Of a stretch of 64,000 bases of DNA, positions 13,871 through 57,403 are shown piece by piece. The stretch is from Nemertoderma westbladi (taxonomy: Eukaryota > Animalia > Xenacoelomorpha), in contig JAUCBJ010002497.1 of assembly GCA_032718475.1 (NCBI GenBank), positions 67,997 to 131,996 of the forward strand, given 5' to 3'. Numbering within the stretch: position 1 is the stretch's first letter; every line of letters starts with the position of its first letter. A program made the translations under genes and the position numbers. The notes under the pieces are model-generated. The model had not been told where the DNA came from. It saw nothing but the letters and a program-made list of their open reading frames with translations, and did not search any database.

Positions 13871-14997
13871 TGTTCGCGCTTTCAGACCTTTAGCAGTTTA
13901 ACCTGCCAAATTTAGATGTCTTCTAGGTTATAAATCGACTTTAGCCTATGACGAGTATTTGATACACTACATTAGCCGAAGCCAGCCTATGCGCGACCAT
14001 TCACCCGCTGGATATACCCGGGAGACTGGATTCGGAAGCTCTGACCTTATTGCGATGTAGGCCTACTGTATTATTCGATTGATCGTTAATATATAATCTC
14101 TGACCAATATTATTCACTTTCGGGAAATATTAACAGTTCCTTTAGGACGTGGCGCTCTAAGTATGTAAACAGAGTTATGACTTACACTAAACACAACGGG
14201 ATGGCTAATGATTCACGTATAAAGCGCATTCCATAGGAGATGCTTTGTTATCTGTCACAGTCATGCACACTACCGCACAATGCTGCACACCGATCTGCCG
14301 ACCTTCACTAATTTTAGTCACATATAAAGAGAACAGCAACTGACACATGTAGTGCCTATGAAATAGCATTAGATTCACTCCAAAACCAATATAATGTAAG
14401 TCGCAATTGCTATATGTAACCGGTCTCTTACCTTCAGTATATCAAGAAGATTGGGGTTTTATGATTATTTATCGATATTATCCAAATATAACAATATTCC
14501 ATCAACTGATATAATTAATAACCGACAGTAAATAGCAGTAAAATAATGCGTTGTTTGTATGAGATATGACCATATGACAAGTGTGATTCGTTTGATAACA
14601 GTTATACGTTTCTATGATCAAAGCCGGTCTAATGTTTGGCTAAAGTCTGAAACACAGAATAATTCCACAGCCGGTGTTCTAGGCTTAGGAAAAATACACA
14701 CTGACTGAATTGCGTGAGTTTCTGTATACAATGTCCAACACAGAGTGAAAACCGCTCTGATTGGTCGACCGAACAAAGAACAAAGAAAAAGTTACACGTG
14801 GACACAGCTGATAGATGTCGTCATCTGAGTTCCGATGTTTAGAGTATTTGAGCTTATTGCGGAGAAAAATGGCTTTTTATGTCCGCTAAAGCACACATGC
14901 AGACATAGCGGGCAAAATCGCTTGTTATGTCCGCTAAAATACCTACTCGGTATATTGCGGAGAAAAATAGCTTGTTACATCCGCAAAAGCTTTTACA
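13871..14997 (-). repeat. 3' LTR of element A (1127 bp)
   Basis: Matches 56266-57403 and is adjacent to the PPT. Confidence 0.95.
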
Positions 14998-15099
14998 CCT
15001 CTCCCAGAAAATGGGATTTGAGTCTATAAAATATACAAAATCACAGTTTCTAAAATATAAAAATACTCTAAACAGTTAGTCTTTCTTGTGCGGACGGCG

Positions 15100-16412
15100 T
15101 TTACGCAGTTTTTTTCTCTTTGGGGTGAGCCACTTTACTAGGAGGGCTATAACTCCTGGGTAAAGGGTGCAATACAATTGCATCGGAAGGTTTAGGGTTA
15201 TGGTCGATGTCTCGTCCATTTCGATATGCTTCTCCTCGAGCTGATTTTCCTCCGCTTATCGTTGGATGCATTCGTCCAAAAACTCTTGCAGAGAATAGGG
15301 TCTTCCAAGTTCGATATCTTCTTAGAGATTCTGGATTTCCTGATCGAACTGAGATAAAGCTAATTCGTTTACCGCTTTGACTTGCTGCTGCAATTTACGT
15401 TTCTCTAAACAATTATAGGTTCCTTTTCCGATCTTTTGACGAATAGTGTCCAACACGTTTCGTACAACTCTCTCCTCCGCCTTGGTGACAGGTTGTATCG
15501 GGTTAAACCGGGACGATGATACGGTTGAATGACGATATTAGATGTCCGCGTCCCAATCCGGCTAGGTAAGATGGGCGAATATTTAGGGAGCCCACAACCG
15601 GAGTGCCACCGACTAACTGTTCGGGTAACACTAGATCTTTGAATAGTGAGTACAGTTCGGGAGGATCCGTGATACTATTAGGATCAAGAGTCTGAAGTCT
15701 AACTAGGGAATGAGGAGGTCTGACCGAGTATTCCGGAACTCTGATCATAGGTTTATTTAAGGATCGTTTGAATCGAATGAGCGTAGGTGATACATCGAAC
15801 AAGTTTCGCTCGAAACTCCCATAAATATAGCGAGTAAAACCGTGTTTAAAGCAACGTCTCTACGGATGTTTATGTTTTTCCATTTGTTGGTTGGGTCTTG
15901 GGCATTCATCGCAATAATACCAAAGACGCACGTCTTGTAGGGGAAACGCGGGTGATATTTATTCGGTTTTACAATGTTTCTCTCAAGAATTCCAAATATA
16001 CGTTGGAGTTACCGCGTTTATCCGGTTCTTTAACGTCTTCTCTTTCGATTCAATTTCGAATAGAATTTTCGCATTCGATTTTCAGTTTATCGTTCCAACT
16101 CCGTTGGGTAGGATATTTAAATAGTACCATTTCCCTTTCGGTGTCGACATCGTCCGTATCGTGTAAATCGATATGACCAGTATTTAAGAAGTCCATATGC
16201 GTACCATTACGATGCGTATAGCGAGCAGTGAATTTTCGATAGTCTAATTCACGCGTAAGTTGCTCCTGGGACATCGGCGGTTCGATATAACGACCATCGT
16301 CCTCCGTAGTAGTTGGACTAGCGTCGCTGCGTATCAAGCTATCAACAAACGCTTGCAACGGTAGAGTATATTTCTCCCATATACCAAGATCATCTTCTAT
16401 CAACTCAGTCAT
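15100..16412 (-). pseudogene. Degenerate accessory ORF of element A, unknown function
   Basis: ORF pieces 16050-16412 and 15503-15802 and downstream coding-like sequence are homologous to 43698-44950 in element B. Confidence 0.6.
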
Positions 16413-18051: not shown

Positions 18052-19132
18052 TTACGTTGGGGAGTCCCTAGATGTTTTTTGGATTAGGGAGGTGGTCGTG
18101 GGAAGAGTATCTTGCCTTCCATAGTTTCCAGACAGTTCTCGGTCTCTTTCCAGTAAACATAAACGACCAACTGGGCGATTGAGCTGCTGTGTCTCGAAGA
18201 CAATTCCAGGTTTCCTCTTCGTCCTGGAATAGTGACGATAGAAACATCGCTTCAAATACACGATGGCCTTACAAAGCCGATTCCAGGATCTATAGTGGTC
18301 CATCGCTCCCGGCAGGAGAGGTGAGAGATCTTTCAGTGTCTTTCCCGCTGTCTTCCTCTTGAGAAGCCTGGCTTTCGCCGTCGTCTGTATAACACACTGG
18401 TATTACCTTTCTCGTAGAAACGGGTTTCTCACTTACCTTATTTTCCGGTGTCTTCTCTCTGGACTGTTTTAGGAGCTGTAATTTTACCTCTCCATCTAAG
18501 AATGACATGAGATCAGCCATGGTAGGGTCTCTTCGTTATGGTTCCATCATATATAACACTTTCTTGTCCCAGCGTGTACCTACTCCACCTTTGGGCAAAG
18601 TAGATGCTAAGGCTCCTACAACCATAGAATTCTGGTATCTTACCTAACCAATCTAGTTGTCTACAGATCTCCTGAATCTCGTCGGAAAACTCTATAATCC
18701 CGCTGCTAAGAAACTTTCGGGGCGCCATTAATTTCGCATATAAATACCTAGCTATGTTAGTCCTATTACCATACCTGATGTTTAGTGTATCCCAAACTTG
18801 TCTTAATCCATCTGGATGTCCAATAAACTTTAACGCCATTAACTTGGGAGATCCTTCCAAGCACTCGATGAGGAATCTCAGTTTCTCTCCGTTAGATAGC
18901 ACAGAGTTCTGTATGTTATTTTTGTAATATTCATTAAAAGGTAACCATTTCATCTCATCTCCATTGAACTTGACGATCTCTCCCACCTTTACCGCTTGAC
19001 GGGCTTCGGTTCTAGCCATTTGACGCGTAAAACTTTCTTGGGCCAACGTGTTATTTAATATCGAGTTATCGGTATATAAATTTCTCGGATTATTATCAAG
19101 TCTATATGGAATATCATTGTCAACAGGTTTAT
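18052..19132 (-). pseudogene. Element A gag C-terminal part fused to short pol-end remnants
   Basis: FNGDEMKWLPF...EKLRFLIECLEGSP (BEL/Pao gag capsid-like region), then DHYRSWNRL...RPVGRLCLLE; frameshifts present. Confidence 0.85.
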
Positions 19133-20969
19133 TATAGAATTATATTCTCTAAATGCCGTGGATTTTCAAAATTTTATTTTATTCGAATTTACTTTGTTAT
19201 AAAGATTACATTAAGTCCTCATTTGTATTTACTATATCTATTTATACGATGATTATTCAAGTGGTTCAGTAGCTCAGTCGGTAAAGCGTTGGAAATTATA
19301 TGTAGTAGGTATTGAGTTCGAATCCTTGTAGGTGTGAATTATTTTTTGTGCAGAATTTCAACTCATTTAAATTGACCGCTACAAATTAAATTGCATTTGC
19401 CTGTACCTAGATTAACCAATGGGACTGTAGTTATTAGATAGTAACCAATGTCGTGCAAGTTGTATATTCGCTGGACCAATAGTTATCTTTAAAAACCTAT
19501 TAGAACTCATAGAACAATCGAGAATTTTCTCGATTGATTGCAGCACAAATTTGCTATATAAGGTGCGATTTCGTTCATTAGTTATTCTAATTAGTTTATA
19601 ATCTTTTGTAATAAAAGTTAGAAATACTTGTTACATCTGCCCTTTTCTATCCTGTTTTACTACGGTGAACTTAACTGAGGGACAAGATGGCAGGCTAAAC
19701 ATCGGGCCACAGCAGTGAACGGGAACATCTGAGGAATGTAGAAAGGAGACAACCCGCAATATCATTCTTGAGTTATTCGCCCATCGCCTGAAAGGTTAGA
19801 CAGCGTTCAATGCCTTGCTACCTAAGTATAAGACCAAAGATCGAATGTAGAGGTAGTAACACGCTGTGCGCTAAAAATTACATCTAGGGACCGTACTGTC
19901 TTAATTCAGAGAAAACCCGCAGTAGACCTTCATATTCCTACGGGGGAGAGGAGAGCAGGCAGAGATACTAGTACACAGATAGGACGTAGGCACACCGGTA
20001 CAAGGCATACACATTGGTAGGGTGCAGCAAACTGTACGCCTAACTCTTGCCAAGTACAGGTGCGCCTGTGACTATTTGTAGTACAACGGTGTCCATTGCA
20101 TTAGAACTTGTAGGCCAGAAGGGTTACTGTGTTTTACCTGAATTAGGATTGTACCGTTCAGGCGGTAGGGCAGTTTACAACTAGGCGCAAAATAAATTGA
20201 GGCTATTTAGGGATACTAACATCTACCGTGTCCCCGCCAACATTCTGTTAGGAAGTTGCTGTACCCATCTAGGCAACCAAAATTCTAGATAGGAACACCA
20301 GGCTAGCTATTAGTAACTGTACGCCTACTGTAGTAAACTAACACATTTCATCTTAGTATTAGGGACCTGGTAAATTAAATTGCCGAATTCTGGGCGTAGT
20401 ATTAACCTTATGCCTGAATTTGAGTCCTGGAAATACAAAAAAGGGAAGGAGCCTTATCATTCGTGAGTATTGGACCTACAAGTTACAAAATTAGAATATT
20501 CGTAAAATGTACACCGGACCCAGTAATTATATATATGAAGGAGCAAAACTGACTTTGACTGTTTAGAATTAACACGCGCGCGTTAGAAATTATTTACACC
20601 TCAAAATACATAAAATTAACTTTTGTCCGTACTGCGCTTTGCCCGCTAGTTAGACATCTCTAGATCTCTGCACCTAGCTAGCGTCTTTTTCGCCCAACCA
20701 TATAAATCACACCGCGGCAAAGTATATGAGCGCCCTTAGTCCGTCAGTGAGTCAGCCTGATTTTAGGATTCGCTGCGCGGGATTTTGTTTTATCGAAGTT
20801 TGTCCGTTCGTAGACTGTTTTCTGCCTCACCGGTTATAAGAGACCGATACTGCAATATATATTCGCTTACTTGGAGTTTACTGTTTTGGTGAGAAGGTCG
20901 GATTATGATTTGATTCACAAACTTTACAGTAGGATATTGCAGGGTATTTTGTTACTGTCTCTTCGCATA
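19133..20969 (+). repeat. 5' LTR of element C (termini TAT...ATA)
   Basis: Identity with 50165-52001 begins and ends exactly at these positions. Three CCAAT boxes (~19416, 19445, 19476), TATATAA at ~19555 and AATAAA at 19610. Confidence 0.95.
19261..19348 (+). promoter_or_regulatory. tRNA-like Pol III cassette in LTR C (second copy ~50293-50380)
   Basis: A box TAGCTCAGTCGG, B box GAGTTCGAATCC at tRNA-like spacing, then TTTTTT; no proper acceptor stem. Confidence 0.7.
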
Positions 20970-20980
20970 GTAGGAATATG
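20970..20980 (+). promoter_or_regulatory. Non-tRNA primer-binding site of C, complementary to its own LTR at 19931-19941
   Basis: GTAGGAATATG is the exact reverse complement of CATATTCCTAC. Confidence 0.8.
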
Positions 20981-21777
20981 TTTTACTGAACTACGGTTCG
21001 GTAGGACTAAAGTTATTTGAAAATTCTGTATTTTGAGGTAAAAGTTTATATTTGATTAGCTAAGTGCTAATTTTTTGAAATAAAATTTTGATTTGAACCG
21101 CGTGTAAAATATTTTGGAATTGAATACCGGTGTTTAAAAAGGGTTTAAATACCATATTGTACCGGTACAAAATTTTCGTAAAAGTAAAACTTAACTCTTT
21201 TGTTTTTCAGGATTCAGAGCTCATTTCTAGACTGTAACGAGAGCAAGACCGTGTTTAGCAAGTTTCCGAGATAGATAACTCAACAACTTTGGTTGGGAAA
21301 ATCGCACTTCGTCCGCAACGCTGGAAACGGAAAGGTTCACGTCCGGTTTGTATCTGGGAATCTGTTTTTCTGGAGAATCATTGGAGGGGGTGAGTTCGAA
21401 AAGTTGCATAAATAAGTTAGGCATTACCGTATTAGTTAAAATTATTGTGGGTTCCACTGTCTCAAGTATTTATGCATTCCGTACGATTTCTTTGTTTATT
21501 GCTGAATTAGTCCGTATTATTGTATTTAATTTACCTTTTGATAACGTATATCGTTTCTGATTTATTTGTTATAAAATTGGCCGGTAGGCTAATTTTATTA
21601 TATACTTATTCCGTGACATTTATTTGCTGTAAAATTGGCCGCTAGGCTAATTTTATCCATCTGCTATAAAATCGGCCGGTAGGCTAATTTTATATGACTG
21701 TAATTAATACCGTTTTGATACAAATACGGTAAGTTTGATACTTTGACACTCACTTTACTTGACTTACAACTACCGAA

Positions 21778-24700
21778 ATGAGTGACAAACAAGACTATAC
21801 GAAGAATACACAAACCGACTATGACTCATGTAACGCGGATAAGTCAGAAGCGGAAGAACCACAGGGGAAGACTCGTGAGCCTACCGAACCTACACCGTGC
21901 GCGTCACCAGTACATCCAACGGGAGTACCGGATGCCGTAGTACGAGGCGACGGCAGGACCGAGGATTTTCTAACGGTCCCGCAACCTAGATATAGGGAAA
22001 CGGACATGGTAAGTTCAGTAGGAAGCCAGGAAAGCGTTGTTAGAAGCGTCGGAGGTTACATGGCGCATATTACTAGGAGTATTGGAGAAGGCCAACGCAT
22101 ATTAGACGAGTTGACCGCTCCGATGTCTCGATTCGAGTTCTACACTCTACAGGTGAGAGTACAAAGCAGAGTACATAAGTCCGTAGATAATCTAATTGGT
22201 CTACAAGATCTAGCTAGACAGAGACAGGATATGGACACACAGTTTAGAATCCTCGAGAAATTAATGATCGCTAGAGAGAAACTGATTCAGTTTAAGACGA
22301 CCGTTAGACAGATACAACAGGAACAAGCAGACCAGTTGCTAGGTGAGTCGGTTTCCGACGAGTTATTACAGCCCGAGGAAGAACAGGAACTGTACCGACT
22401 GGATGGACAATTGAAACATCTGACGGATCACTTACGTATGTGCGGCGAAGACGTCGGCGATTTGGAAACCGTGCCGGAATATACGAGGGGAACTTCACCC
22501 GTACAAATCGAATCGGCACCGGAAATACTGGACCAATCGTTAGTGAGTATTCGCAGCGAAATTGGCGAGGTAAGTATAGTGACGTCAGAAATTTCTAGAC
22601 AGCAACAACAGTACCACAGACAACAACGAGAAATGGAAGAACAAACTCAATTGTTAACTGTACAAGCAGCTGTAGAGGAAGAGAAGCTACGCGTTGCAAA
22701 TGTTGCGAGAATTTCTCATCTGCAAGAACAAGCCGAGTTGGAAGCGGCTGAGATGGAAAGGTTGGAGCTAGAAATAGCACAAAGAACAGCAGCAGCGGAG
22801 TTAGCGCAACGAGCGGCAGCAGCCGAGTTGGAACGACAAGCGGCAGCGGCTGAGTTGGAACGACAAGTGGCAGCAGCGGAGTTAGACAAACAAAGGCGAG
22901 TTTCGGAAGCCCGAGCCGAGTTGAAAAAACGACAAATAAAGGCTCAATCAGCTATACGACAAGCGGAGTTCGAGGCGCAACAACAACAGACGGAACAACG
23001 TGAGAAGGAAGTTAAACTTCATTTCGAACTCGAAAGGAAGGCGAGAGAACTAGCCGAAGCCAAGGAAAATCTGGATCTTCTAGCCCGCGATCGATCGATG
23101 AGATCTCGTGACGGACATGATTTGGACCAGATAGAGGTAAGGCACCGTCAAATTCAGGAACGAATGAAGGAAGGAAGTGTAGGGGCACCTGGGCGAGAAA
23201 GACAATTAGTTAAAGACTTATGTCAAAGATTCCCTCAAGTAACTCCTATGTTTGCACCAGTTACGACTAAGGAACCTGTTTCGATTGCGGGTAGTAGTAA
23301 TATTTCTCCTATCCATTGTGCGACGGAACACAGGTTTGTTATTCCGGACAAGTTCATACCGCCAAGAGCAACACCGTCGCCTATTCTGAAAGTCAAGGTA
23401 AGTAACCCACCGATTACCGATCGTAGTAGTTTATTGCCCGGACCTGCACTACTAACGACAAAACAGGTGAGTCCACCTTCGACACCAAAACCCGTTACGC
23501 ACTACACATACCCAATGACGTTTAGGCCTACAAGGCCTTTAGATTCAAACGCTGTCACTCGACCACCGGTTCAGTTTACATCGCAATCTACGACTTCGAG
23601 GAAGACCTGCGAGCCTACCGAACAATGGAGACCAGTGGATACGCGACCGTTTAATCAGTTTACATCGCAATCTACGACTTCGAGGAAGACCTGCGAGCCT
23701 ACCGAACAACGGAGACCAGTGGATACGCGACCGTTTAATCAGTTTACATCGCAATCTACGACTTCGTGGAAGACCTGAGAGCCTACCGAACAATGGAGAC
23801 CAGTGGATACGCGACCGTTTAATCAGTTTACATCGCAATCTACGACTTTGAGGAAGACCTGCGAGCCTACCGAACAACGGAGACCAGTGGATACGCGACC
23901 GTTTAATCAGTTTACATCGCAATCTACGACTTCGAGGAAGACCTGCGAGCCTACCGAACAACGGAGACCAGTGGATACGCGACCGTTTAATCAGTTTACA
24001 TCGCAATCTACGACTTCGAGGAAGACCTGCGAGCCTACCGAACAACGGAGACCAGTGGATGATGTTCCGAAGCGGAACGTTAGAATTCGGACGACGCAAC
24101 GGACACGAGCACGTCGACCACCGTATCCAGGTGACAGTAGTACTTCAAGCGAGTCGGATTACCCGAAACGCGAGGTATTTAGAACAGGAGCGGCCGACGA
24201 ATGTAAACGTGAGCGTTCAGATAATTTATTTATCGATAATCCTCCACAAAATACACCAATACAAAGGGCGTTACAACCAACGGATGCGATCAGTACTCAA
24301 CAATTTGCCGACATTCTGAGACCAGTTGTCAACAAGTTGGCCCAGATCGAGGAACGCTTGGAGGAAGTTCACACCGACAGTTCGAGAAACACCGAATTCG
24401 AACACTCTAGACACCCGAACATTCAGCAAAGACCGACACCTTTGAGGAACACCTCGAATCAAAGAAAAGCGCCAAGAAGAGAGAACATCAACCAGGTTGC
24501 CAACCCAGGACGCGAAACTTTGAACGTTGCCGAGGAAATAGCGAAATTCGCAGCTAGACAAGGACTACCGGTGCAACAACCACCTAAGTTTTCCAGTAAC
24601 TCTAAACATTGGCACACTTTTGTAGACTACATTGAATCTCAGATTGCTGTGTGTGCTTTTACATCGAGAGAAAAATTCAACTACCTGTTACAAACGCTGA

Positions 24701-27396
24701 CGGGAGAACTGAAACGTCTAGCGGAGACTTTTGTCGGTGTACCAGATGCCTTCGAATTAGCGTACGATCGCTTAACATCGATTTACGGAGGCACCGTAAG
24801 TATGGCTAAGTCAGTGATAGAAGAACTCTGTAAGGGGGGGGCTATTACAAAACCCGTTGACTTACTGAAATTGGCTGACGAGATTAAAAACGCCATTACT
24901 ACACTACGCTCAATTGGACAACTTGACTACGCAAACACTCCTACAGTCCTATTGAAAATAATAGGAAGATTGCACCATCGACTTCGTCGGGAGTGGCGAA
25001 AAATCGAATATCAGCGAGAAGAACGAGGTGGATTCTTGAAGTTGGAAGATGTCTACTTATTGATATCCAGAGAGGCAGTAGTGGAGACTCGTTCGAACTA
25101 CACGGACCAACACATCGTAGCAGAAGGAATCACCCTACCGTCATCAAACAGACAGAAACCACCAATGACATCCACAAAGACGGTCACCTACGCTACACCG
25201 ACCGAAACCCGACAATTTTCAGACGGTAGTAAAGTGTCTGCACCTATAGGGACCAAACAGACCAGACAACAACTAACTGCCGACTTCAGCGGTTGCCAAT
25301 ATTGCGAACGGATTGGTAAGCGACATACTAGCCACAACTTAAGGGGATGTCGACTATTCCGTGAATTAAACTCAGAGGAACGACGGCTTCAAATAAGACC
25401 GTTAGATTCTTGTTGGCGGTGTACGCAACATGGACATGTCCGTAAGGACTGCCCAAATACAGACACCTGTCCTTACTGTGGACGCAACCATGACGGTCTG
25501 CGCCACATGGACAGTCATACGCCGACCAAACGCTTCATAAGGGAACACCCGGAAGCTGCAGCAAAATGCAATAGTGCATACAAAACACGCGAATCGAGAA
25601 CAACACCAACATTCGTGACGCATATTAGGGATTGCTTCTCAGAACAATCCGGATCATCAGATGAAGAGTCGGAAGACGACGACGTTTATTTCGGTACTGG
25701 GGACGAACAACCATCGATTGCACTTCTGACGCCTGATCAACTAAAGGGGTTTAGTGTAATTCCCGTTAAGATTACAGGCACAAAGGGGAGCAAAAGGATC
25801 TACGCTATCCTAGATTCAGCCTCATCTCACAGCTACGTAGATGAGAAGGTAGCTGATGTCGTCACAGATCTCAGACAAGGTAAGCACATAAAGTACACTG
25901 TAAGTAGTATGCATGGACAACATGCAATACCAGTGACACGAGTTAAGTTAAACTTGGACACCCTTCTTCCGAAATCGCAACATAGCGAAAAGGAGAGGTC
26001 TTTGTTACCCTTTAAGGATTTGACTTTTGCGGCCACCAAGGACTTTAGTAACCTACTGGGTCCAGTGCCGGAACAATCCCTAGATGACCGTAAGTATTTC
26101 AGACACCTCGGTGTACCTGAATGTCCTGTCAACTATAGGTCGGTAGCAATGCTGATCGGGACGGACCAATTCAACCTACATCAAGTGTGGGAAACCAGAC
26201 CATCGGTAGTCGTAGCGGGAAACGTTTACGCCTGTAGAACTCCGATAGGGTGGTATACTCGAGCGCCTGTGCGCACACTGGATATAAGTGATGAGGAAGA
26301 CGATGTACAAAGTACATGTAGTTTACTAACTACAACTTCGATTCATTCCTTTTCACCTGACATAGACTATACTACACTACGTTCGACAAAACACGACAAC
26401 GTTACAGGTACGACGTGTGTAGCAAATACGATAAGTCACAAAGAGCAGCCAATCCACAAGGTTAGTATAGAGCGTGAGAAGAAGACGAGTCAGGCAGAGG
26501 TTCCATCGACGACAGATGATAACGCCGGAAGGCTTGCGAGTCTATCTACACCAATAACTTTAATGATGCCCGTCGATATCGATGTTGACACATTAAAGAA
26601 TTGTCAAGTGGAACAAGCTGAACTAGACAAAGAGTTAACAGAGAAAACTATCAGGTGGTTAGAACAAGATACAGCAGAACCCGGTAGTTACGAACCGTGT
26701 ATGTCGGAACAAGAGAAACAATCTTTGAAGATCATGGAAGATACTATCTGCCAGACGAAAGACGGACATTATGAGGTAGGGATGCTATGGCGTAACCAAC
26801 GTCCTAAACTTACAAATAACTATCCGCTAGCCTTACGACGCTTACACTCAATACGACAACGTTTATTGAAGGACGAGAAAGCCCATCTGCAGTATAATAC
26901 TCAGATGGAGACGTATTTGACTAAAGGATACGCTATCAGGATGACAAACCCAGAGATTATGACAGACCAGACATACTATTTGCCACATCACTACGTGAGA
27001 CACCCCGACAAACCTGATAAAGTACGCGTAGTTAACGACTGCGCGGCCCTGTTTGAAGGAATGTCTCTCAACAGTGAGTTGATGGATGGACCAAACATGA
27101 ATAATTATCTCATGGGGGTGATTATGCGCTTCCGTCAGCGCCAAGTAGCATTTACTTGTGACGTAGAAGTGATGTTTCACCAAGTGCGAGCGTTAGAGCG
27201 AGACAGAGACAGTTTGAGGTTCCTCTGGTACCCGGATGGAGACTTAAGTCAACCACCGGCGACTTACCAAATGCAAGTTCGCGTTTTCGGTGCCAGGGAC
27301 AGCCCAAACTGCACTATGTACGCCCTAAAACAGACTGCTAGGGATCAGAAACATATGTATGACCCAGAGGTAATCCAGATCGTTACAGAGTTGTGA
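21778..27396 (+). pseudogene. gag-pol: Element C gag-protease-RT (N-terminal part); one frame with a nonsense codon at 23776-23778
   Basis: Coiled-coil N-terminus; BEL-type Cys/His cluster (CQYC..H..C, CWRCTQHGHVRKDC, CPYCGRNH...H); protease ILDSAS; RT motifs YLPHH, KVRVVNDC, SLNSELMDGP, DVEVMFHQV, FGARDSP. Confidence 0.93.
23569..24060 (+). repeat. 84-bp in-frame tandem repeat in the gag of C, about 6 copies
   Basis: Encodes (QFTSQSTTSRKTCEPTEQRRPVDTRPFN)n. Confidence 0.95.
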
Positions 27397-33373: not shown

Positions 33374-33385
33374 TTAAAGGATATA
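33374..33385 (+). promoter_or_regulatory. Non-tRNA primer-binding site of B, complementary to its own LTR at 32628-32639
   Basis: TTAAAGGATATA is the exact reverse complement of TATATCCTTTAA. Confidence 0.85.
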
Positions 33386-43697: not shown

Positions 43698-44950
43698 ATG
43701 ACGGAGTTGATAGAAGATGGTCTTGGTATCGGGGAGCGATATACTCTACTTTTGCAAGCGTTTGTTGATAGCTTAATACGCGGCGACGTTAGTCCAACTG
43801 CTGCGGAGGACGATGGTCGTTATATCGAACCGCCAAGGTCCCAAGAGCAGCTCACGCGTGAGTTGGACTATAGAAAATTCGCTGCTCGATATACGCAGCG
43901 TAATGGTACGTATATGGGCTTCTTAACTACTGGTCATCCTATCGATTTACACAATACGGACTATGTCGACTATATATCCTGCCCAGCGGAGTCGGAACCA
44001 TAAACTGAAATTCGAATGCGAAAATTCTATTCGAAATCGACTCGAAAGAAAAGACACTAAAGAAACAAATGGACGCGGTAACTCCAACGTATATTTGGAA
44101 TTCTTGATAGAAGCATTGTAACAACAAATAAATATCACCCGCGTTTACCTTACCAGACGTGCGTCTTTGGTATTATTACGATAAATGCCCTAGACCCAAC
44201 TAATAAACGGAAAGACATAAACATCCACGTAAACCGAAACTTGTTGACGTATCACCTATGCTCACTCGGCTCGAACGATCCTGGAGTAAACCTACGATCA
44301 GAGTCCCGGAATACTCGGTCAAACCTCCTCATTCCTTAGTTGGACCTCAGACCTGCGATCTTGGTGGTGTCGCGGATCCTCGCGGACTGTATTCACTGTT
44401 CAAAGATCTAGTGCTACCCTAACAATTAATCGGTAACACTCCGACAGTGATTTCTAGCTAGCCGCCCATCTTACCTAGCCGGATTGTGACGCGGACACCT
44501 AATATCACTACCCAACCGTATGGTCGTCCACGTTTAACGCGATACAACCCCTCATCAAGGTGAAGGAGAGCATTGTACGAAACGAGTTAAACGCTATTTT
44601 ATAAAGATCAAAAAGGAAACCTGCGTTTGTTCAGATAAACGTAAGTTATAACAGTGAGTCCAATCGATACACGAATTGGCCTTATCTCAATTCGATTGGG
44701 AAATCCAGAATCTCTAAGAAGTTATCGAACTTGGACAATCCTATTCTCTGCGAGAGTTTTTGGATGAACGTATCCAGCTACGAGCGGAGGAAAATCAGCT
44801 CGAGGAGAAGCATATCGAAACGGCAGATACTTCGACCACAATCCTACACCTTCTGATGCAATCATATTGCACCCTTCACCCAGGAGTTATGGCCCTCCTA
44901 GTAAAGTGGCTCCCCCCAAAGAGAAAAGGACTCTTGCTAGCCTCAAAAAA
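43698..44950 (+). pseudogene. Degenerate accessory ORF of element B, homologous to 15100-16412
   Basis: MTELIEDGLGI...DDGRYIEPP.SQEQLTRELDYRKF; downstream AEENQLEEKHIE. Confidence 0.6.
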
Positions 44951-45061
44951 CTGCGTAAACGCCGTCTGCGTAAGAAAGACTAACTGTTTAGAGTATCTTT
45001 ATGTTTTAGAAACTGTGATTTTTATATTTTATAGACTGAAAATCCCATTTTCTGGGAGCGG

Positions 45062-46278
45062 TGTAAAAGCCTTTGCTGAATTGCCCCGTTTTTTATATTA
45101 TCTTTTACATTAAAATACTCTGTAGTTGATTTAATAAGTGTAAGAGACCGTATTATTGCTGTATCGGTGTTTTTAGAGGATCTAAGACCTATTTCCTCCG
45201 TATGTGTACTGTGAAAGGCATATTTTATGATTCTATGGCAATTCGTGACGCAAAGGGGTGATAGCTACTCTTGAACAGTAGTTACTATGACTACGGTTAA
45301 CAGCTGACATTCATACGTGTTGATTTCCTTTGTTCTACGGCGTCTCTCAGTTCAGTCAGCCAATGAGAGCGTTTTTGTGGCTCCTTGTACAGAAAATTTC
45401 CGAGAAATGACGCAATGCCTATGTGCAGTGTTTACATTCAGTCTTGAGCCAAAGAAAGAACGGCTTGGAAGTATTTTGTGCTGTACTGCTTTTTAGTCGT
45501 ACACTAGTAGGTTTAATTATAAAGGGCATATATCCTTTAACAAACTGACTACTTGAATATCTCATGCCTATATCTCATTGCTGACATACCGGTACTGACT
45601 TGTTGTTTTATACTGCTATTTGCTGTCAGTTCTTCATAATATGGTTGATGAATAATTATATTTGGAATAACGATAAATAACCCCGCAACCCAATATTCTT
45701 GATATACCTAAGGTAAGAGAGAAAGAAAGGTTACCAATAACGATTGTGACTTATGTTAAAGTGGTTTGAAGTGAATCTAATGTTATTTGATAGACCCTAC
45801 ATGAGTCAGCCTGTGTTCCTTTTATATGTGACTAAAATCATTGAAGATTGGCAGATTAGTGTGCAGTATTGTGCAGCATAGTGTATGCGTGAGTCTGTTA
45901 AAGAAGCAATTCCTAAAGAATGCGCCATATATGTGAATTAATTAAGCCATATCGTTGTGAGTAGTTTAAGTCATAACTCTGTTTATGTAGATAAAGCGCC
46001 ACGTCCTAAAGGAACTGTTAATATTACCGAAGGTGAATAATATTGTCAGAGATTATATAGTACTGTCAGTCGAATAATACATTAGGCTTACATAGCAATA
46101 AAAATTAAACCGTCGAACCCAATCTCCCGGGAATATCCAGCGGGTGAATGGTCGCGCACGGATTGGTTTCGACTAGTGTAGTGAATCAAATACTTGTCAT
46201 AGACTAAAAAGCGATTTATTATCTAGAAGACATTCTAATTTGGCGGGTTAAACTGCCAAAGGTCTGAAAGCGCGAACA
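45062..46278 (+). repeat. 3' LTR of element B (1217 bp)
   Basis: Matches 32161-33373. Confidence 0.97.
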
Positions 46279-46283
46279 GGGCG

Positions 46284-49234
46284 GAAGACTCGCGAGCCTA
46301 CCTTACCATTGGACGTCACACGATCAAACTTCAGCTAAGGAGATGACACCGGAAGTTTTCGAGAGTATAAACTTTGCTCAAAACGTTATTCAGAGACTAC
46401 AGATTGCATCCCTGGAAAGGACAAGAGAAATGCAACCGTATAGTACTTCAACTACGAAACCATTGAGTACGACACTCAATTTCCCTATTAGTATACCAGT
46501 TCGACAAGATACAACGTATGAAATACCTATTGTGGATCATCCGGAAATCATTTCGAACTTAGAGTTTCTTCCTGCAGTTGTTCTAAGCGATATGGTTAAG
46601 ATATATGATTTACGTAGACATATTACGCAAAAGGTCGTGCATAATGTTCCGCCTCATATTCAAGACTTTAGGGAACTGGATAGAGCTGGCGCTGATATAG
46701 CTCCGAGTAACCTGAAAGGATATTTAACCAAAACAATTCGCTTATGGATTGGAACAGGAACCTTTGAGTCGGATACAGATATCGCTGCGGACTGGCAAGG
46801 TAAAGTCATTCGTTTCGAGGACGAGAAAGACATAGAGAAGATTTGGCAACCTTCGGAAGAATTATTGGACGAATGGAATAGGACGTTTAGATCGTTTCAG
46901 GAAAACGGTTACATGTTTTATGATAACGAGGGCGGCAGCCATCAGCAGAGTCTAACCTCCAAGACTATACAAATTAGAGCGGCAGACGGAGTTTTGCACA
47001 TTTTCAGTAGACAAAGGAGCGACAAGCGAATGCCAATACCTCCAGGAACTACAAAGCGGCACCATTTCATCACAAATATAGTAAAGAAAATGGACCAGGC
47101 TTGCAATATCGATGCTAAAATGTTACCAAAGACGGTGAGAAATATGATTTTAGATAAAACTGTTGTAAAGATTGGATCAGGAGTAAGAGAGGACTTAATT
47201 AGCGACTTCGCCGGCATTTCGGACAGTGACGACCGATTACCGACACCTTACGTCGACACTCGACCTCTTATACTGTGGTCTATAGAACAAGGATACTTTC
47301 GTGAGTATGATACTCAGAAAACCGGAACTGGATATATTTCCTACTTGATGTTTAATTGGGATTACAAGGAAAGTAAAAGAACAAAGTATATCGAAACGTA
47401 TGGAGAAGGTGATACTCCAGATATAAATGAGTTTGAATCACAGCTCAAATGGAGAGGATGCGTATATTGGGCTATTACTTCACCTCCAAGAGCCATACTA
47501 CAATATTATTTAGCGATAGAGTCATCAGTGAATGTTTGCTTAGTCGCCGACATTGTGTCTCGGACTCTTAAAAGACATCCACTTTGCCTCGGAGAAGATC
47601 ATACATTCCACGCGGAAGGGAGAATTCATACCGATGTGTTTAGATGGTTTCTCGAACCCTTCTACAATTCCGACGCTCAGTGTAATGCCTTCACTCGAGC
47701 AGGATTCAGTATATTTCGAGACGTGTATCTTCGCTGTGCGGGATCTCTTATCGAAAGACCATCTATGTTTACATTGTTACCCTATGAAGGAGAACGTATC
47801 ATGGAGCTTACTGACGAATCACGGCAGACGCGTGCGCCTATCGGTCACTTAGGTGATGATTTCGAAGTAACGACGGCCATCGATGATCCTTTAGAGGAAC
47901 TTCTTGAGATTGAAAGGAACCTCCCGAAGAAATCTCAGGCGGAGATTCGACAACTAGAAGCAACAGATGCTGTAGTTTGCATACAACCTTCTGAAACATA
48001 CCAACCTATCGACCCAGACGATTATGACTATAGTGTGGGAGGAAGCGCTCGACCCATTGGCGATCTTATATATGAGCGAGTGTGGTACCCTGCTAATACG
48101 ATGTGTGGTAAATGTGGCGTCGCTGGACATCATTCAACAAAGTGCAGTGGAAAGCACATTACTACGACTCAACTGATTTGTGGGTGGTGTGGAGATCAAG
48201 GGTCCCATACATTTTATACTTGCTGGAGATTTATGGCTCAATGCACATATTGCAATATAAAGGGACATCGAGCATCTGAATGCCAACTGAGAGACATACC
48301 TTACGAACACGAATCTGTAAAACTCGTGCGAAAACTATTTGATGAGTGGGAAGATTTGGCTGACGAACATGTAGCAGCGCAAAGAAGACGGTTCCCGATG
48401 AGAGCGCATCTTGGATTTTGGGTGGTAAATCCTCAAACTATGATGTCGGAAGGATATATCTCCGCTATGCCGCAATATGACGAACTCATCGAGGTAGTTG
48501 ATATTTTGCCTCACGATAGTGGATTCCGAGTTGTGCGCGAATATTTGTTACAGATACACCCTGACAATAAGAATACATGGAATTTCCAGAAAGTCGTTAA
48601 TCGTATCACCTATGGTGAATTTGATCGGTTCCGAACGGAAAAGCGGAACAAGGGAGCTTGGTTAACCGTTGCATGGGCGTACCGAGCCGCGTTCTACCAT
48701 AAACGTATACGAGCGAGCGTATTCGAGGAAGAGGAGGTCCTAGAGGCGAACAACATACCAGCTACTCCGGTCGCGCCATCTGCACGTCACCCTCGGGAGG
48801 ACGGACAGCACAAGATCATACGGGTCCAGAAAGTGGGCCAACAGTTAAAGAAAACTATCAACGTTGAAGAACGAAGGGGATACGAACCGACTATTCGAAT
48901 TACTCGGGATACGGTTTCGCTTCCCAGAGAACCGCAAGGAGGATCGGGACATATACCAGCTGATCAAAAGGGGGCGCAAGCTTCTCTTGGGTCTGCGTCG
49001 TCCGCTTCTCGCGCGTTCCCAGACGTTTTACCAGCGGTAGATACAACAGATCGGTCACGAGGGATTGGACGAGGATTTGGGATAACTAAGAGACGAATAT
49101 GTGAGGAAATGGTCGTACCATCTCCCAACGTCCAAAGTAATCCAGTGGCTCGCCCCACAAGTCCCATATCACGAGCTAAATCGCCGATACGCAGTTTTCG
49201 AGGACGCGGCAGGGCTCGATCCGCTAAGCGTTAA
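46284..49234 (+). CDS. Element C ORF3, C-terminal part: DEDDy/RNase D-like 3'-5' exonuclease, three CCHC knuckles, basic tail
   Basis: ExoI-like FYDNEG, TIQI, LPKTVRNMILDKTVVKIGSGVREDL (ExoII-like), YVDT, ExoIII-like YLAIE; knuckles CGKCGVAGHHSTKC, CGWCGDQGSHTFYTC, CTYCNIKGHRASEC; Arg/Ser-rich end. Confidence 0.75.
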
Positions 49235-50164: not shown

Positions 50165-52001
50165 TATAGAATTATATTCTCTAAATGGCGTGGATTTTCA
50201 AAATTTTATTTTATTCGAATTAACTTTGTTATAAAGATTACATTAAGTCCTCATTTGTATTTACTATATCTATTTGTACGATGATTATTCAAGTGGTTCA
50301 GTAGCTCAGTCGGTAAAGCGTTGGAAATTATATGTAGTAGGTATTGAGTTCGAATCCTTGTAGGTGCGAATTATTTTTTGTGCAGAATTTCAACTCATTT
50401 AAATTGACCACTACAAATTAAATTGCATTTGCCTGTACCTAGATTAACCAATGGGACTGTAGTTATTAGATAGTAACCAATGTCGTGCAAGTTGTATATT
50501 CGCTGGACCAATAGTTATCTTTAAAAACCTATTAGAACTCATAGAACAATCGAGAATTTTCTCGATTGATTGCAGCACAAATTTGCTATATAAGGTGCGA
50601 TTTCGTTCATTAGTTATTCTAATTAGTTTATAATCTTTTGTAATAAAAGTTAGAAATACTTGTTACATCTGCCCTTTTCTATCATGTTTTACTACGGTGA
50701 ACTTAACTGAGGGACAAGATGGCAGGCTAAACATCGGGCCACAGCAGTGAACGGGAACATCTGAGGAATGTAGACAGGAGACAACCCGCAATATCATTCT
50801 TGAGTTATTCGCCCATCGCCTGAAAGGTTAGACAGCGTTCAATGCCTTGCTACCTAAGTATAAGACCAAAGATCGAAGGTAGAGGTAGTGACACGCTGTG
50901 CGCTAAAAATTACATCTAGGGACCGTACTGTCTTAATTCAGAGAAAACCCGCGGTAGACCTTCATATTCCTACGGGGGAGAGGAGAGCAGGCAGAGATAC
51001 TAGTACACAGATAGGACGTAGGCACACCGGTACAAGGCATACACATTGGTAGGGTGCAGCAAACTGTACGCCTAACTCTTGCCAAGTACAGGTGCATCTG
51101 TGACTATTTGTAGTACAACGGTGTCCATTGCATTAGAACTTGTAGGCCAGAAGGGTTACTGTGTTTTACATGAATTAGGATTGTACCGTTCAGGCGGTAG
51201 GGCAGTTTACAACTAGGCGCAAAATAAATTGAGGCTATTTAGGGATACTAACATCTACCGTGTCCCCGCCAACATTCTGTTAGGAAGTTGCCGTACCCAT
51301 CTAGGCAACCAAAATTCTAGATAGGAACACCAGGCTAGCTATTAGTAACTGTACGTCTACTGTAGTAAACTAACACATTTCTTCTTAGTATTAGGGACCT
51401 GGTAAATTAAATTGCCGAATTCTGGGCGTAGTATTAACCTTATGCCTGAATTTGAGTCCTGGAAATACAAAAAAGGGAAGGAGCCTTATCATTCGTGAGT
51501 ATTGGACCTACAAGTTACAAAATTAGAATATTCGTAAAATGTACACCGGACCCAGTAATTATATATATGAAGGAGCAAAACTGACTTTGACTGTTTAGAA
51601 TTAACACGCGCGTGTTAGAAATTATTTACACCTCAAAATACATAAAATTAACTTTTGTCCGTACTGCGCTTTGCCCGCTAGTTAGACATCTCTAGATCTC
51701 TGCACCTAGCTAGCGTCTTTTTCGCCCAACCATATAAATCACACAGCGGCAAAGTATACGAGCGCCGTTAGTCCGTCAGTGAGTCAGCCTGATTTTAGGA
51801 TTCGCTGCGCGGGATTTTGTTTTATCGAAGTTTGTCCGTTCGTAGACTGTTTTCTGCCTCACCGGTTATAAGAGACCGATACTGCAATATATATTCGCTT
51901 ACTTGGAGTTTACTGTTTTGGTGAGAAGGTCGGATTATGATTTGATTCACAAACTTTACAGTAGGATATTGCAGGGTATTTTGTTACTGTCTCTTCGCAT
52001 A
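50165..52001 (+). repeat. 3' LTR of element C (1837 bp)
   Basis: Matches 19133-20969. Confidence 0.95.
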
Positions 52002-54144
52002 TTTATAATTACCCTTAATAGGGTTTACTATAGGAGTTTCCACTTCACTAGCAGTATAGATGCGTGTAGGCTCCACACCTTGCGCATGAAATACTTCAGA
52101 CCTAACAGGTTGACACATTGTTATAGGGGTTGGTGGTATACCCCTTTGGGTATTTACTAATTTGTCGCGTTCCAACGCGATACTCTGCTGCACCTCTTGC
52201 AACTCTAACCTACTTTCCCTTACTGTGCCCTTGAACTGCTGAACAGTTCCTTCCATCTCCCGGACCTGCTGAGAGGAGCACTTACGGTGTTCCCTCAGCT
52301 GCTCGAGCAAGAGACCCATCTCCCGTTGTCCCTCAGCTACCCACTCGACCGCCGAAGCGGGAGTCGCCAACGTAGTAGCGGGCGAGCGAGAGACGAAGGG
52401 CGATAAATTCTTGATATCTTGCTCGCCGTCCAGGATGGGTTCGGACTCGGGAACAGTCCTACTGGGCACAGGTAGTTTCGTGCTGTGCAAAGGGAATTTA
52501 GAGGTAGGTTCTGGGAGTACAGGTGTCTCTATCACCGAAGGGGTGGCTTCGAGAACAGGCCCAATTATTTCAGGTTCATCTACTATAGTAGGGAGTCTTT
52601 CTACTTTAATAATTTAATTACTCTGTCTTTTGGGAGTAGATCGACACATCATCTGCATTTGACTAGCTGTTAACTGTTTATTTATGCAGTCTTGATTCTC
52701 TTGAATATTTTCCAACTCTAGTTGGGTGGTTTCTTCAGACGCTCTCCGTTCTGCTTCTGCCACTGCCTCTGCCGCTGCCACTGCCGCTTTTCTTTCCGCT
52801 TCGGATGCTGCCACTGCTGCCTTTCTTTCCGCTTCTGCCGCTGCCACTGCCGCTTTTCTTTCCGCTTCTGCCGCTGCCACTGCCGCTGCTGCTTTTCTTT
52901 CCGCTTCGGCCGCTGCCACTGCCGCTTTTCTTTCCGCTTCTGCCGCTGCCACTGCCGCTGCTGCTGCTGCTGTCTTTCTGTCTTCTATACGTTTTTTCTT
53001 TACCTGTTCTTCTTGGACCCTAGTGATGCGGAGTCTTTCATCAAATTTAGCTTGGTTCGCAGCTAACATTTCCACATCTATTGCGTCCAACACAAGATTG
53101 GCTCCTTCACTATTAGGGCGAAGTCCAGACAGCCGTCTCCTCAACTCTTCGTCACCTAGAAATCGTTGATAGTCTGACAGATAGATGTCAATAGCATCCC
53201 TCTTATGCGGTTTCTCAGCTGTCGCTTCACTTTCCACTTGGGAAAAGGTAGCGTCTGTTGATTCTCCATGGGTTGAGCGCTCAGCCAGCTGAGATTTCCA
53301 CTGGGCCGTTCCTTGAACCTTGTGACTCACCCGCTGGAACCAAGTCTTTACAGCAACTTGCAACGACGTGTCTTGTCTTCTTTTCGAAGCTTCCTCAAAG
53401 GCCGATAGGATTAGTCTGATACTTAGAATTCTTTCTCTAACTTGATAAAGCAGCTCTCCCTGCTCTTGAGGTCCTTGGGGTTGTCGAAACAGTTGTTCCT
53501 CTAATCGCTCCAAAGAGCTGAAGAATCCCTGTACGTATCCTGCTGCCGACCTCTTCCATACAGCTGGATCACTGGTGTCTTTTGTCACTCCCATCCTGTG
53601 TATGTCTTCCCAGGCAGCTTCTGATAAGTCAAACGGGAGTCCGGGTCCGGGGAAGTTCCATTGCGACTCGACAATAGACTTCAGTTCTTCCCTTGTGTAT
53701 CCCGCATAACTATCCTTGGTCGATCGCTTACTTCTCAATCTGGTGTTCCTCCACCGCAATCAATACCCTAGTGAGTACGGCTGCAGGAAGGATGAGAAGG
53801 GGATCCGAATAAACCACATCTGCCATCTTTGCTCCACGCTCGGGTGTCAGCTCTACAGTATCCGCACTACTGGAACTGTCGGGCTGCTGAGAAATAAGTT
53901 CTCGGCTCGAGTGTTGCTGCTGTTCAACAGCTGCTTCTTGGTCCTGCTTGACCTGAGCTCAAGTGCCTATGATAGACCTACGGTGTTGGACTAGCCTAGG
54001 GTCTGATACTACTACTGGAGGGATGATCTTTCTTACAGTAGGAGGTGAGTTGAACTTCGGTCTCACACGTTCCACACTCCTGTCTGGGTCACAGATGGTT
54101 GTATCTAGGAGACTGTCTGACAGGTTTTGCTTTGTGTCAGACAT
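52002..54144 (-). pseudogene. gag: Element A gag N-terminal part
   Basis: MSDTKQNLSDSLLDTT..., ESEATAEKPHKRDAIDIYLSDYQRF and (AAAEAERK)n; homologous to the gag of B; contains stops. Confidence 0.88.
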
Positions 54145-54279
54145 GTTTGTTTGTACAGTTGAATGCCTACTGCTATATTACAGTTAAAGCAAGTCTAGTA
54201 ATTCAGTATCACTGTTAGCCTAGTAATTAATTACCGATATCGTTACTCTATGTAATGTGATATATATACAATATATTAG

Positions 54280-54770: not shown

Positions 54771-56253
54771 GTCAATTATTTTAGAATAATTGAATTTCTG
54801 AATTTTAGGGGTTACTTGGTTACTTTACTTTACCTTATTACCGTTATTTAAGCAGTAGTCCAACTGATATTAAGACCTAATTGTTGTATGACAGGCCTAC
54901 TATTTTATAAATCGGTTTTTAAATGGGTTTTTGTCAATATTTGAAATAAATGTTATTATTTCTGGGAAGGAGTCACTGCACAGAAGCTGTACGCTCTCAG
55001 TGAAGTGCTACTTGTTGGACACTAAAACAAATAATTATAATTTGCCTAAATTACTTAATACTACAAATTACGTACAATTCGGGGTGAGATTACAATCTCT
55101 AAATAAACACAAAAATTACACATACGAATTTTTAGGGTAATTTTACAAAAAGTCTACAAACCAGCCTAACAAAGGGTTAGAATATCTGGTTATTACAAAC
55201 AGACAGGATACTACGGTATTTGAAAATAACAAAGCAGTAATAAATATACTGCGTTGTCCAGATAGGAAAAATACCACCGTCTGACGACTTATAGCCGTAT
55301 CGCTATAAGTACTACGTTATGTATCACGGAGTGTTCCTACCTAGAACTTAATTACCGCGGCCTACCAGAGCCAACGTGCCTATTAACCACTTTACAACAC
55401 AAATATACTGCCTACACACTAATTACCTTCGGAAAGTACTGTACACTAAACCCTAAATTAGGTACAAGTACTTATACAACAAATAATCAGCAGTTAAAAA
55501 TACTTGTACAGCTAAAAGAACCACGGTATCTGCTGGAGTGACCAAAGCATAAAATCTCCAGTCTTTACCTACGCCGAACAGCCCTGATGTAGTACCGGGG
55601 TTAATTTAACTATAACGGTATGTATAACAAGCACAATTACTGTAGGAATAAACTTGGGGTTTGTGAATGTTGCGAATAATCGCATAAACTCTGAATAATA
55701 AATATTACGCTACCCGTACAGACTACACAAACAAAATACAAACCAAATGCTGGCAGACTACTATCAAGCCTAAATAAACTACAGTATATGCAGACTCCGA
55801 AATGGTTAGTTAGTATGCGTTCTAACCGAGTAGTACGACTTATTCTTTCAGGGGGATTTACCTTACAGCACTGGATGCCACCCACTTTCCTAACTAGTAC
55901 TTTATCGGACATACACTCTACACACACTGCAATCTCTTCAGACTTAACAACAGTCAGACAACAGTCTAGCCTACAAATTATCTGTACAATCTGAGCAGGC
56001 TTACACGCCTTCTGCTCAATATCAACTTACAAATAAATAAAACTGACAGAAATAAGTAAAATCCCAATAAAAACCAGGGCTGCAGTCCCTGATTAAATAT
56101 CAAGACCTACCGGTATACAATTATCAAAAATCGAATAATACTGCTGTACCTGTACTGCTGTAAGTACCGGTCCGAGTGGTTAGGTAGTCAGGCCTACTGG
56201 TTACCGGTCGACCGGTACTTTTGCCCTTTATTGCCTACGTGCAATAAAGAAGC

Positions 56254-56265
56254 TATAACTGTTAT
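56254..56265 (-). promoter_or_regulatory. Non-tRNA primer-binding site of A, complementary to its own LTR at 56990-57001
   Basis: Minus-strand ATAACAGTTATA pairs with minus-strand TATAACTGTTAT in the LTR (also at 14595-14606). Confidence 0.85.
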
Positions 56266-57403
56266 TGTTCGCGCTTTCAGACCTTTAGCAGTTTAACCTG
56301 CCAAATTTAGGTGTCTTCTAGGTTATAAATCGACTTTAGCCTATGACGAGTATTTGATACTCTACATTAGCCGAAGCCAGCCTATGCGCGACCATTCACC
56401 CGCTGGATATACCCGGGAGACTGGATTCGGAAGCTCTGACCTTATTGCGATGTAGGCCTACTGTATTATTCGATTGATCGTTAATATATAATCTCTGACC
56501 AATATTATTCACTTTCGGGAAATATTAACAGTTCCTTTAGGACGTGGCGCTCTAAGTATGTAAACAGAGTTATGACTTACACTAAACACAACGGGATGGC
56601 TAATGATTCACGTATAAAGCGCATTCTTTAGGAGATGCTTTGTTAACTGTCACAGTCATGCACACTACCGCACAATGCTGCACACCGATCTGCCGACCTT
56701 CACTAATTTTAGTCACATATAAAGAAAACAGCAACTGACACATGTAGTGCCTATGAAATAGCATTAGATTCACTCCAAAACCAATATAATGTAAGTCGCA
56801 ATTGCTATATGTAACCGGTCTCTTACCTTCAGTATATCAAGAAGATTGGGGTTTTATGATTATTTATCGATATTATCCAAATATAACAATATTCCATCAA
56901 CTGATATAATTAATAACCGACAGTAAATAGCAGTAAAATAATGCGGTGTTTGTAAGAGATATGACCATATGACAAGTGTGATTCGTTTGATAACAGTTAT
57001 ACGTTTCTATGATCAAAGCCGGTCTAATGTTTGGCTAAAGTCTGAAACACAGAATAATTCCACAGCCGGTGTTCTAGGCTTAGGAAAAATACACACTGAC
57101 TGAATTGCGTGAGTTTCTGGATACAATGTCCAACACAGAGTGAAAACCGCTCTGATTGGTCGACCGAACAAAGAACGAACAAAGAACAAAGAAAAAGTTA
57201 CACGTGGACACAGCTGATAGATGTCGTCATCTGAGTTCCGATGTTTAGAGTATTTGAGCTTATTGCGGAGAAAAATGGCTTTTTATGTCCGCTAAAGCAC
57301 ACATGCAGACATAGCGGGCAAAATCGCTTGTTATGTCCGCTAAAATACCTACTCGGTATATTGCGGAGAAAAATAGCTTGTTACATCCGCAAAAGCTTTT
57401 ACA
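56266..57403 (-). repeat. 5' LTR of element A (1138 bp)
   Basis: Matches 13871-14997 with an 11-bp insertion near 57175. Confidence 0.95.

Follow-up and report, generated by a model that had tools for sequence, protein, structure and literature searches.

How is reverse transcription started in long terminal repeat (LTR) retrotransposons whose first bases after the 5' LTR are complementary to a segment of that same LTR? The question is posed by three nested BEL/Pao elements, A, B and C, in a stretch of 64,000 nucleotides from Nemertoderma westbladi (contig JAUCBJ010002497.1, positions 67,997 to 131,996 of the forward strand), referred to here as the window and numbered from its first letter. 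Self-comparison of the window places B within C and C within A. Element A occupies 13871–57403 on the minus strand, with C in its gag region; C spans 19133–52001 on the plus strand, with B in its extra 3' open reading frame (ORF); and B lies at 32161–46278, also on the plus strand (LTR starts at 32161 and 45062). The reading that we favour with reasonable confidence, from the sequence and by analogy with the Schizosaccharomyces pombe element Tf1, is that the primer is cut from the element's own RNA and not taken from a host tRNA, the 11–12 bases after the 5' LTR being the predicted binding site. That the primer derives from the element in some way, whether cut from the genomic RNA or made separately as an LTR RNA, appears highly probable.

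A first, sequence-only reading of the window had reported that no TGG follows any 5' LTR, and none is present in the first 30 nt of A, B or C. The three pairings that it proposed are exact reverse complements (the letters for A being minus-strand readings), and each begins at the first base past the 5' LTR. In A (minus strand), the 12-nt predicted self-primer at LTR nucleotides 403–414 (56990–57001) is the complement of the primer-binding position at 56254–56265, flush with the LTR end. In B (plus strand), LTR nucleotides 468–479 (32628–32639) pair over 12 nt with 33374–33385, and in C (plus strand) LTR nucleotides 799–809 (19931–19941) pair over 11 nt with 20970–20980. The distance between primer and binding site is 0.7–1.0 kb, and the primer segment is present in each 3' LTR as well. 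Pairing is longest at offset 0 and drops to 5–7 nt when begun inside the LTR. In 5000 dinucleotide shuffles per LTR, the P values at offset 0 are 0.0002, 0.0002 and 0.0008 for A, B and C, respectively, and 0.0004, 0.0008 and 0.0036 with offsets of 0–5 allowed. The arrangement is thus that of the Tf1 type, a binding site of ~11 nt next to the LTR end and complementary to the element's own LTR. Among the variant places from the sequencing runs, 40 of 171 were inspected and none falls in the primer or binding site of C; two contigs of run X4 cover the C primer without a listed change, which is a weak indication.

Elements A and B are mutual relatives, and their LTR primer sites occupy homologous alignment columns. 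As the first reading had noticed, they differ at 4 of the 12 positions (primer positions 5, 7, 8 and 12), and all four differences are mirrored in the binding site. When the primer of one element is paired with the site of the other, the duplex is lost (−0.6 and +0.6 kcal/mol, against −11.4 and −11.6 kcal/mol for the native pairs). The binding site differs at 4 of 12 bases against 11 of 118 flanking bases (Fisher p 0.033, a test that rests on one pair of elements), and the primer neighbourhood in the LTR differs at 44 of 105. The binding site of retroviruses is re-templated from the primer during plus-strand synthesis. A site copied in this way is predicted to drift with its primer and yet stay perfectly matched, because each round would copy it anew. 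That the A/B binding site tracks a fast-changing LTR segment is as expected if it is copied from the primer, which supports self-priming without proving it.

The relatives speak to how widespread the pairing is. An alignment of 26 BEL/Pao polyproteins led to 79 metagenome loci and to 25 loci from prokaryote genome bins, and 17 relatives were counted whose LTR 3' end is fixed by the repeat. The other 87 of the 104 loci were excluded, having no repeat-fixed LTR 3' end (single LTR, contig edge, circular or non-LTR repeat) or being a duplicate (L071 of L073). A match was scored when at least 10 nt paired at an offset of 0–4, either contiguously or across a GTRAG...YAG intron. Under this rule 13 of the 17 relatives pair with their own LTR over 10–15 nt, five of them contiguously and eight across an intron in the LTR, with duplexes of −7.7 to −17.1 kcal/mol; among the controls, matches numbered 12 in 1360 leader windows and 4 in 380 swapped pairs (two of these four being one related pair). 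With A, B and C included, 16 of 20 elements have an own-LTR match at 0–4 nt from the end of the LTR. The match persists in related pairs despite changed letters, at two positions in L080/L081 and at one in L031/L033. Several of 14 start-only or circular loci gave candidates of 11–13 nt, left uncounted since their LTR end is unfixed. Among the relatives without a strict match, L091 and L102 reach 11 nt under a looser acceptor rule, and L015 and L090 have none.

The contiguous and the spliced types are interspersed on the tree (FastTree), in which C forms a long branch, 41–43% identical to its nearest sampled relatives. Its placement is unstable: sister to all sampled aquatic elements in one tree (support 0.68) and with L089 in the other (0.75). 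The sample was drawn with aquatic-type queries and is silent on insect and nematode clades, the tree has no reference elements of the named clades Suzu, Sinbad, Sparrow, Surcouf, Dan and Flow, and, since none of the sampled BEL/Pao elements with defined LTR ends is clearly tRNA-primed, the sample provides no positive control of that type. Among viral contigs there were 97 pattern matches, none confirmed as a relative. The expectation that relatives would carry a complement of their own LTR was thus borne out in 13 of the 17 and failed in four under the strict rule. As for the self-priming lineage first proposed, self-priming is the best explanation and is strongly supported by the relatives, but it is not limited to a small lineage, the pairing being spread across the sampled aquatic BEL/Pao tree.

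Some features of these loci stand apart from the counts. The 25 loci in bacterial and archaeal GTDB genome bins (L080–L104) are most likely misbinned animal host DNA. Locus L005 and loci L012/L013 are close on the tree and have similar binding sites, the one contiguous and the other across an intron, which suggests an intron loss that preserves the primer; their LTR ends are not repeat-fixed. In three relatives the spacers preceding the binding site and following the purine tract mirror each other (L018 AA/TT, L061 AA/TT, L067 AGA/TCT), unlike A, B and C, which are flush at both ends; other relatives mirror inexactly. A splice-built primer was also considered for A, B and C, and no canonical junction beats the contiguous match.

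The same 20 elements bear on the possibility that a tRNA half, a tRNA fragment or a small nuclear RNA primes, the LTR match being secondary or due to chance. Half-tRNA priming exists in Ty1/copia elements (PMC6317226, in the part available), and the first reading was right that BEL/Pao elements are described as tRNA-primed: the International Committee on Taxonomy of Viruses (ICTV) describes a binding site of 18 nt matching tRNA-Arg or tRNA-Gly (PMC8742986). Yet TGG occurs within the first 8 nt in only one of the 20 elements, the window contains no tRNA gene, Rfam has no above-threshold match in the LTRs and leaders of B and C (chance-level matches only, E 3–4), and own-LTR matches in 16 of 20 elements, some of them across splice junctions, would be left unexplained. 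Priming by such an RNA is given very little probability, the comparison being with the window and with Rfam.

A tRNA-like segment with RNA polymerase III A-box and B-box motifs, followed by a T run, is located in U3 of the C LTR (19270–19324 and 50302–50356, plus strand). These are the sole matches to this pattern in the window, and neither ARAGORN nor Rfam calls the segment a tRNA. Its 5' part could pair over 12 bp (2 G-U) with leader positions +14 to +25, adjoining the binding site, which may be chance.

The helix could instead be a structural or regulatory switch, in splicing, translation or packaging, that masks the LTR boundary while an unrecognised host RNA primes. Other long LTR–leader helices do exist, chiefly in C, and the intron described below spans both helix strands in C. 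A switch would however be expected to be conserved, whereas the primer helix diverges faster than its flanks while remaining perfect; it lies 0–4 nt from the LTR end in 16 of the 20 elements, and its binding sites vary between families, so that each would need a different host RNA. We hold a switch of this kind to be quite improbable. Conservation is seen in another helix, formed between U5 and the leader: 13 bp in B (33163–33175 with 33496–33508, plus strand), kept in A (56463–56475 with 56129–56141) with one change in 13 pairs, unlike the primer helix. In C, a 13-bp helix between U5 (20598–20610, plus strand) and the leader (21027–21039) crosses the primer helix.

The leaders of B and A also contain a perfect 14-nt palindrome (33421–33434, plus strand, and 56203–56216, minus strand), which follows a conserved hairpin of 9 bp located immediately behind the binding site and is, judged by its sequence, a candidate dimerisation signal. 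A strong splice donor, AAG|GTAAG, is common to the LTRs of B (32812, plus strand) and A (56826, minus strand), ~165–170 nt past the primer.

In C at least, the position of the primer in the RNA seems to differ from what a strict Tf1 model predicts. In C, a TATA-like box at 19555–19561 (plus strand, from a motif scan), with CCAAT motifs upstream, marks a predicted promoter 376 nt before the primer, which places the primer ~350 nt past the predicted transcript start; in the relative L061 the TATA lies 31 nt before the primer. A GT-AG intron at 19795–21210 (plus strand), with a donor and a pyrimidine-rich acceptor, would span the primer and the binding site of C. One X4 contig joins 19792 to 21209, and a second leaves at 19794; on its shorter side the joint has only 23 letters, a length flagged as unsafe. 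The type of run X4 is not on record and was guessed to be DNA, so that its treatment as RNA is our own inference; the joint is not listed in runs X1, X3 or X5, two likely DNA runs being without it. If the intron is real, the main transcript of C seems to start far upstream of the primer, with a second start at the primer possible, and splicing would delete primer and binding site together. Of the Tf1-like self-primer first proposed, the pairing holds, while the RNA probably does not begin with the 11-nt primer, at least in C.

An internal primer is what would be seen if a separate short RNA, derived from the element, were used: an LTR transcript, possibly of solo LTRs, whose end lies at the segment from the outset or after trimming, perhaps by an exonuclease-like protein of C, and which anneals in trans with no Tf1-type cut. 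Such an RNA would explain the same mirrored changes, and the intramolecular helix is not predicted to form. The candidate trimming protein is the product of the extra 3' ORF of C (31389–32160 and 46284–49234, plus strand), which is split by B and has zinc knuckles and candidate 3'-5' exonuclease-like motifs. This ORF and P0122, its only full-domain relative, share acidic motif-like residues, whose placement we take to resemble that in DEDDy nucleases. As an exonuclease the protein is unconfirmed, with no exonuclease Pfam match, a best solved-structure match of E 0.93, and a structure model of pLDDT (predicted local distance difference test) 31, too poor for a fold search. In addition, no relative of the ORF is encoded at any of the 79 metagenome loci, yet many of them show the pairing, and primers from diverged copies would blur an exact match to the own LTR. 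We consider a separate short RNA unlikely. The ORF is a near-orphan of more than 1200 codons, with three weak relatives among 1.84 billion protein representatives; a search with P0122 retrieved P0122 alone.

No endonucleolytic cut would be needed either if the primer were a natural transcript 3' end, created at a poly(A) cleavage site, and B has TATAAA 11 nt before its primer start. This variant signal is absent from A. More broadly, AATAAA or ATTAAA is found within 40 nt before the primer end in 0 of the 16 positive elements and after it in 11 of 16, lying 0–97 nt past the primer end in nine relatives; in C, the first AATAAA past the primer is at 20191–20196 (plus strand), and another precedes it at 19610–19615. 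A natural 3' end is accordingly regarded as highly improbable. Because the signals lie after the primer end, an R is left for strand transfer. No poly(A) tail or start site is visible in the sequencing-run contigs on C.

What has been observed directly is the complementarity with its statistics, together with the mirrored changes. Under self-priming, the LTR segment in the unspliced genomic RNA would anneal to the binding site of the same molecule or of a co-packaged copy, aided by nucleocapsid. By analogy with Tf1, the reverse transcriptase (RT)/RNase H of the element would cut at the 3' end of the segment (19941 in C, 32639 in B, 56990 in A) and leave a 3'-OH. Minus-strand DNA would then copy U5 and the rest of R before its transfer, and plus-strand synthesis would copy the primer into a new binding site, keeping both sites matched automatically. 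In C, where the primer seems internal, splicing of 19795–21210 would yield an mRNA that cannot be primed.

Several points weigh against self-priming. The scoring rule was set after the first ten relatives, nine of which match, and the later set gave 4 of 7; four of the 17 relatives fail the strict test, one of which (L091) has TGG at +2. Elements A and B are related and not independent, so that the mirrored changes come from a single comparison. LTR–leader helices of equal or greater length start at 3 (A), 1 (B) and 10 (C) of 1200 leader positions, position 0 included, and the primer duplexes have little stability (−11 to −14 kcal/mol). In nested folding, which cannot represent the crossing U5–leader helix, the primer helix forms with a probability of 0–0.04. 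The C primer is probably not at the RNA 5' end, given the TATA 376 nt upstream and the splice donor upstream of the primer; use of the AATAAA at 19610 would place R upstream of the primer and call for a second RNA copy, and the LTR of A has no AATAAA or ATTAAA at all. The host tRNA set lies outside the comparison. Finally, we infer annealing, cutting and extension only from Tf1, the sequencing-run evidence consisting of assembled contigs in which no RNA end, primer or cDNA was seen.

Even so, the pairing is genuine and not random, and tRNA-independent priming is probably what it signifies. It would be a variant of the known mechanism of self-priming, in a family described as tRNA-primed. A wider hypothesis, which we put forward tentatively and with more doubt than belief, is that a large part of the aquatic BEL/Pao elements gave up tRNA priming and that host splicing controls the self-primer in both directions: many families would need an LTR intron removed to build the primer, while the C intron would remove primer and binding site and so separate mRNA from copyable genome, an internal primer being released or trimmed by an element-encoded nuclease.

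The LTR ends on which these positions depend are fixed by the LTR pairs and 5-bp target duplications (AAAAG for A, GGGCG for B and TTTAT for C). In A (minus strand), the 5' LTR (56266–57403, 1138 bp, TG...CA) differs from the 3' LTR (13871–14997, with the same primer segment at 14595–14606) by 9 substitutions in 1127. The B LTRs (32161–33373, 1213 bp, and 45062–46278, with a primer segment copy at 45529–45540; both plus strand) differ by 1 substitution in 1213, and the GGGCG duplication is at 32156–32160 and 46279–46283. The C LTRs (19133–20969, 1837 bp, inside the A gag region, and 50165–52001, with a copy at 50963–50973; both plus strand) differ by 20 substitutions in 1837. Divergence of the LTR pairs is thus 0.8% for A, 1.09% for C and 0.08% for B, and in all three elements the purine tract touches the 3' LTR. 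The termini of the C LTRs (19133, 20969, 50165 and 52001) are TA...TA, not TG...CA; L067 and L031 likewise have TA on the 3' side. Contigs of four sequencing runs cover the C LTR and leader densely (4014, 1721, 121 and 10 contigs), and because of this density C is taken as a member of a multi-copy family.

Membership of the BEL/Pao family is given by the proteins. The gag-pol of C (21778–30729, plus strand), interrupted by stops and frameshifts, matches in order DUF1759 (E 5e-10), Peptidase_A17 (E 1e-42) and DUF5641 (E 6e-22); PF05380 is carried by all 120 homologues among the matches listed. DUF1759 is also found in A (E 4e-12), and B was assigned by tblastn with BEL proteins. One C frameshift falls at the RT catalytic motif near 27390, so that its RT is broken. 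B retains a coding remnant at 35512–42039 (plus strand), comprising the gag and protease region and a piece of RNase H, with a counterpart in A at 51885–54177 and 18055–19130 (minus strand); no RT was found in the A or B remnants, and their gag is only 21–24% identical to that of C. All three copies are non-autonomous or broken and would depend on intact partners for mobilisation in trans, A and B on partners other than C. The family-specific domains, the Pol order protease–RT–RNase H–integrase, the LTR pair, the target-site duplication and the polypurine tract are all those of BEL/Pao, while the 18-nt host-tRNA binding site of the ICTV description is lacking in A, B and C. The elements are accordingly filed as BEL/Pao by protein ancestry, the tRNA-site trait failing for them. 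They are not members of the Tf1/sushi group, which has a Ty3/gypsy chromovirus Pol; the claim is limited to a Tf1-like way of working.

Around and within the elements, inverted repeats flank A (12266–12803 with 58374–59703, and more at 58055–59293), and A may sit inside another repeat. The protease region of B is interrupted by a 2.4-kb fold-back at 38696–41136, with arms of ~790 bp that are 87.8% identical and an inner inverted pair. A separate RT ORF (RVT_1; 60374–62564, plus strand) is probably a non-LTR element.

If self-priming is true, the ICTV statement of host-tRNA priming would be wrong for a large share of BEL/Pao, which would become the third superfamily, each of the three LTR superfamilies then having self-priming. 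Such elements would go unnoticed by finding tools in which a tRNA site is a requirement, and the elements themselves would escape silencing by tRNA fragments. An internal or splice-built primer would go beyond what has been described for Tf1, and the RNA ends that it predicts have exact coordinates. The Caenorhabditis elegans BEL element Cer7 has reportedly been proposed to encode its own primer-like RNA. By title and abstract opening, no report of BEL/Pao self-priming was found, older subscription papers, Repbase Reports and the full ICTV report being outside the search; the terms 'PBS' and 'primer binding' are absent from the main text, supplements aside, of three BEL/Pao surveys (PMC554778, PMC3118150, PMC6238403).

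Compared with known systems, C shares with the Belpaoviridae of the ICTV the Gag-PR-RT-RH-IN order, the Pao peptidase/RNase H and DUF5641 domains, the LTRs and the purine tract. The ICTV profile (PMC8742986) gives LTRs of 0.2–1.2 kb, genomes of 4.2–10 kb and an 18-nt tRNA site, whereas C has no tRNA site, a 1.8-kb LTR, a length of ~18.7 kb once its insert is discounted, and an additional ORF. The remaining comparisons draw on the available parts of their sources. The bdelloid elements Juno and Vesta have an extra 3' ORF3 with DEDDy exonuclease-like motifs and Cys/His knuckles, for which RNA 3'-end processing has been suggested (PMC5408684); they are not BEL/Pao, and the exonuclease assignment of the C ORF is that of a candidate. 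Self-priming is on record for Tf1/sushi; for the Tcn1 clade and the Ty1/copia TAR lineage (PMC6317226), and also for Tj1 of S. japonicus (PMC4600332), it is a prediction. In the TAR lineage (Houba, Osr-1) and the Tcn1 chromoviruses, the same test was used, a complement of at least 10 nt starting 0–5 nt past the LTR; these elements differ in having plant or fungal hosts and in belonging to other superfamilies, and the available part of the source describes no splice-built primer (PMC6317226). The closest likeness is to Tf1 and Tf2 of S. pombe, Tj1 and the Tf1/sushi group, which like A, B and C have no tRNA site, an own-LTR-complementary site of ~11 nt adjoining the 5' LTR, and an extra U5–leader helix (PMC7175516, PMC4600332, PMC5341516). 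In Tf1 the transcript's initial 11 bases pair with the binding site, and the cut by RNase H follows base 11 (PMC7175516), and in Tf2 alternative starts keep copyable RNA apart from coding RNA (PMC5341516). The three elements differ from this group in their superfamily, with BEL/Pao domains, and in the gap of 0.7–1.0 kb between primer and site, and, unlike in Tf1, 8 of the 13 positive BEL/Pao relatives have their primer only after splicing.

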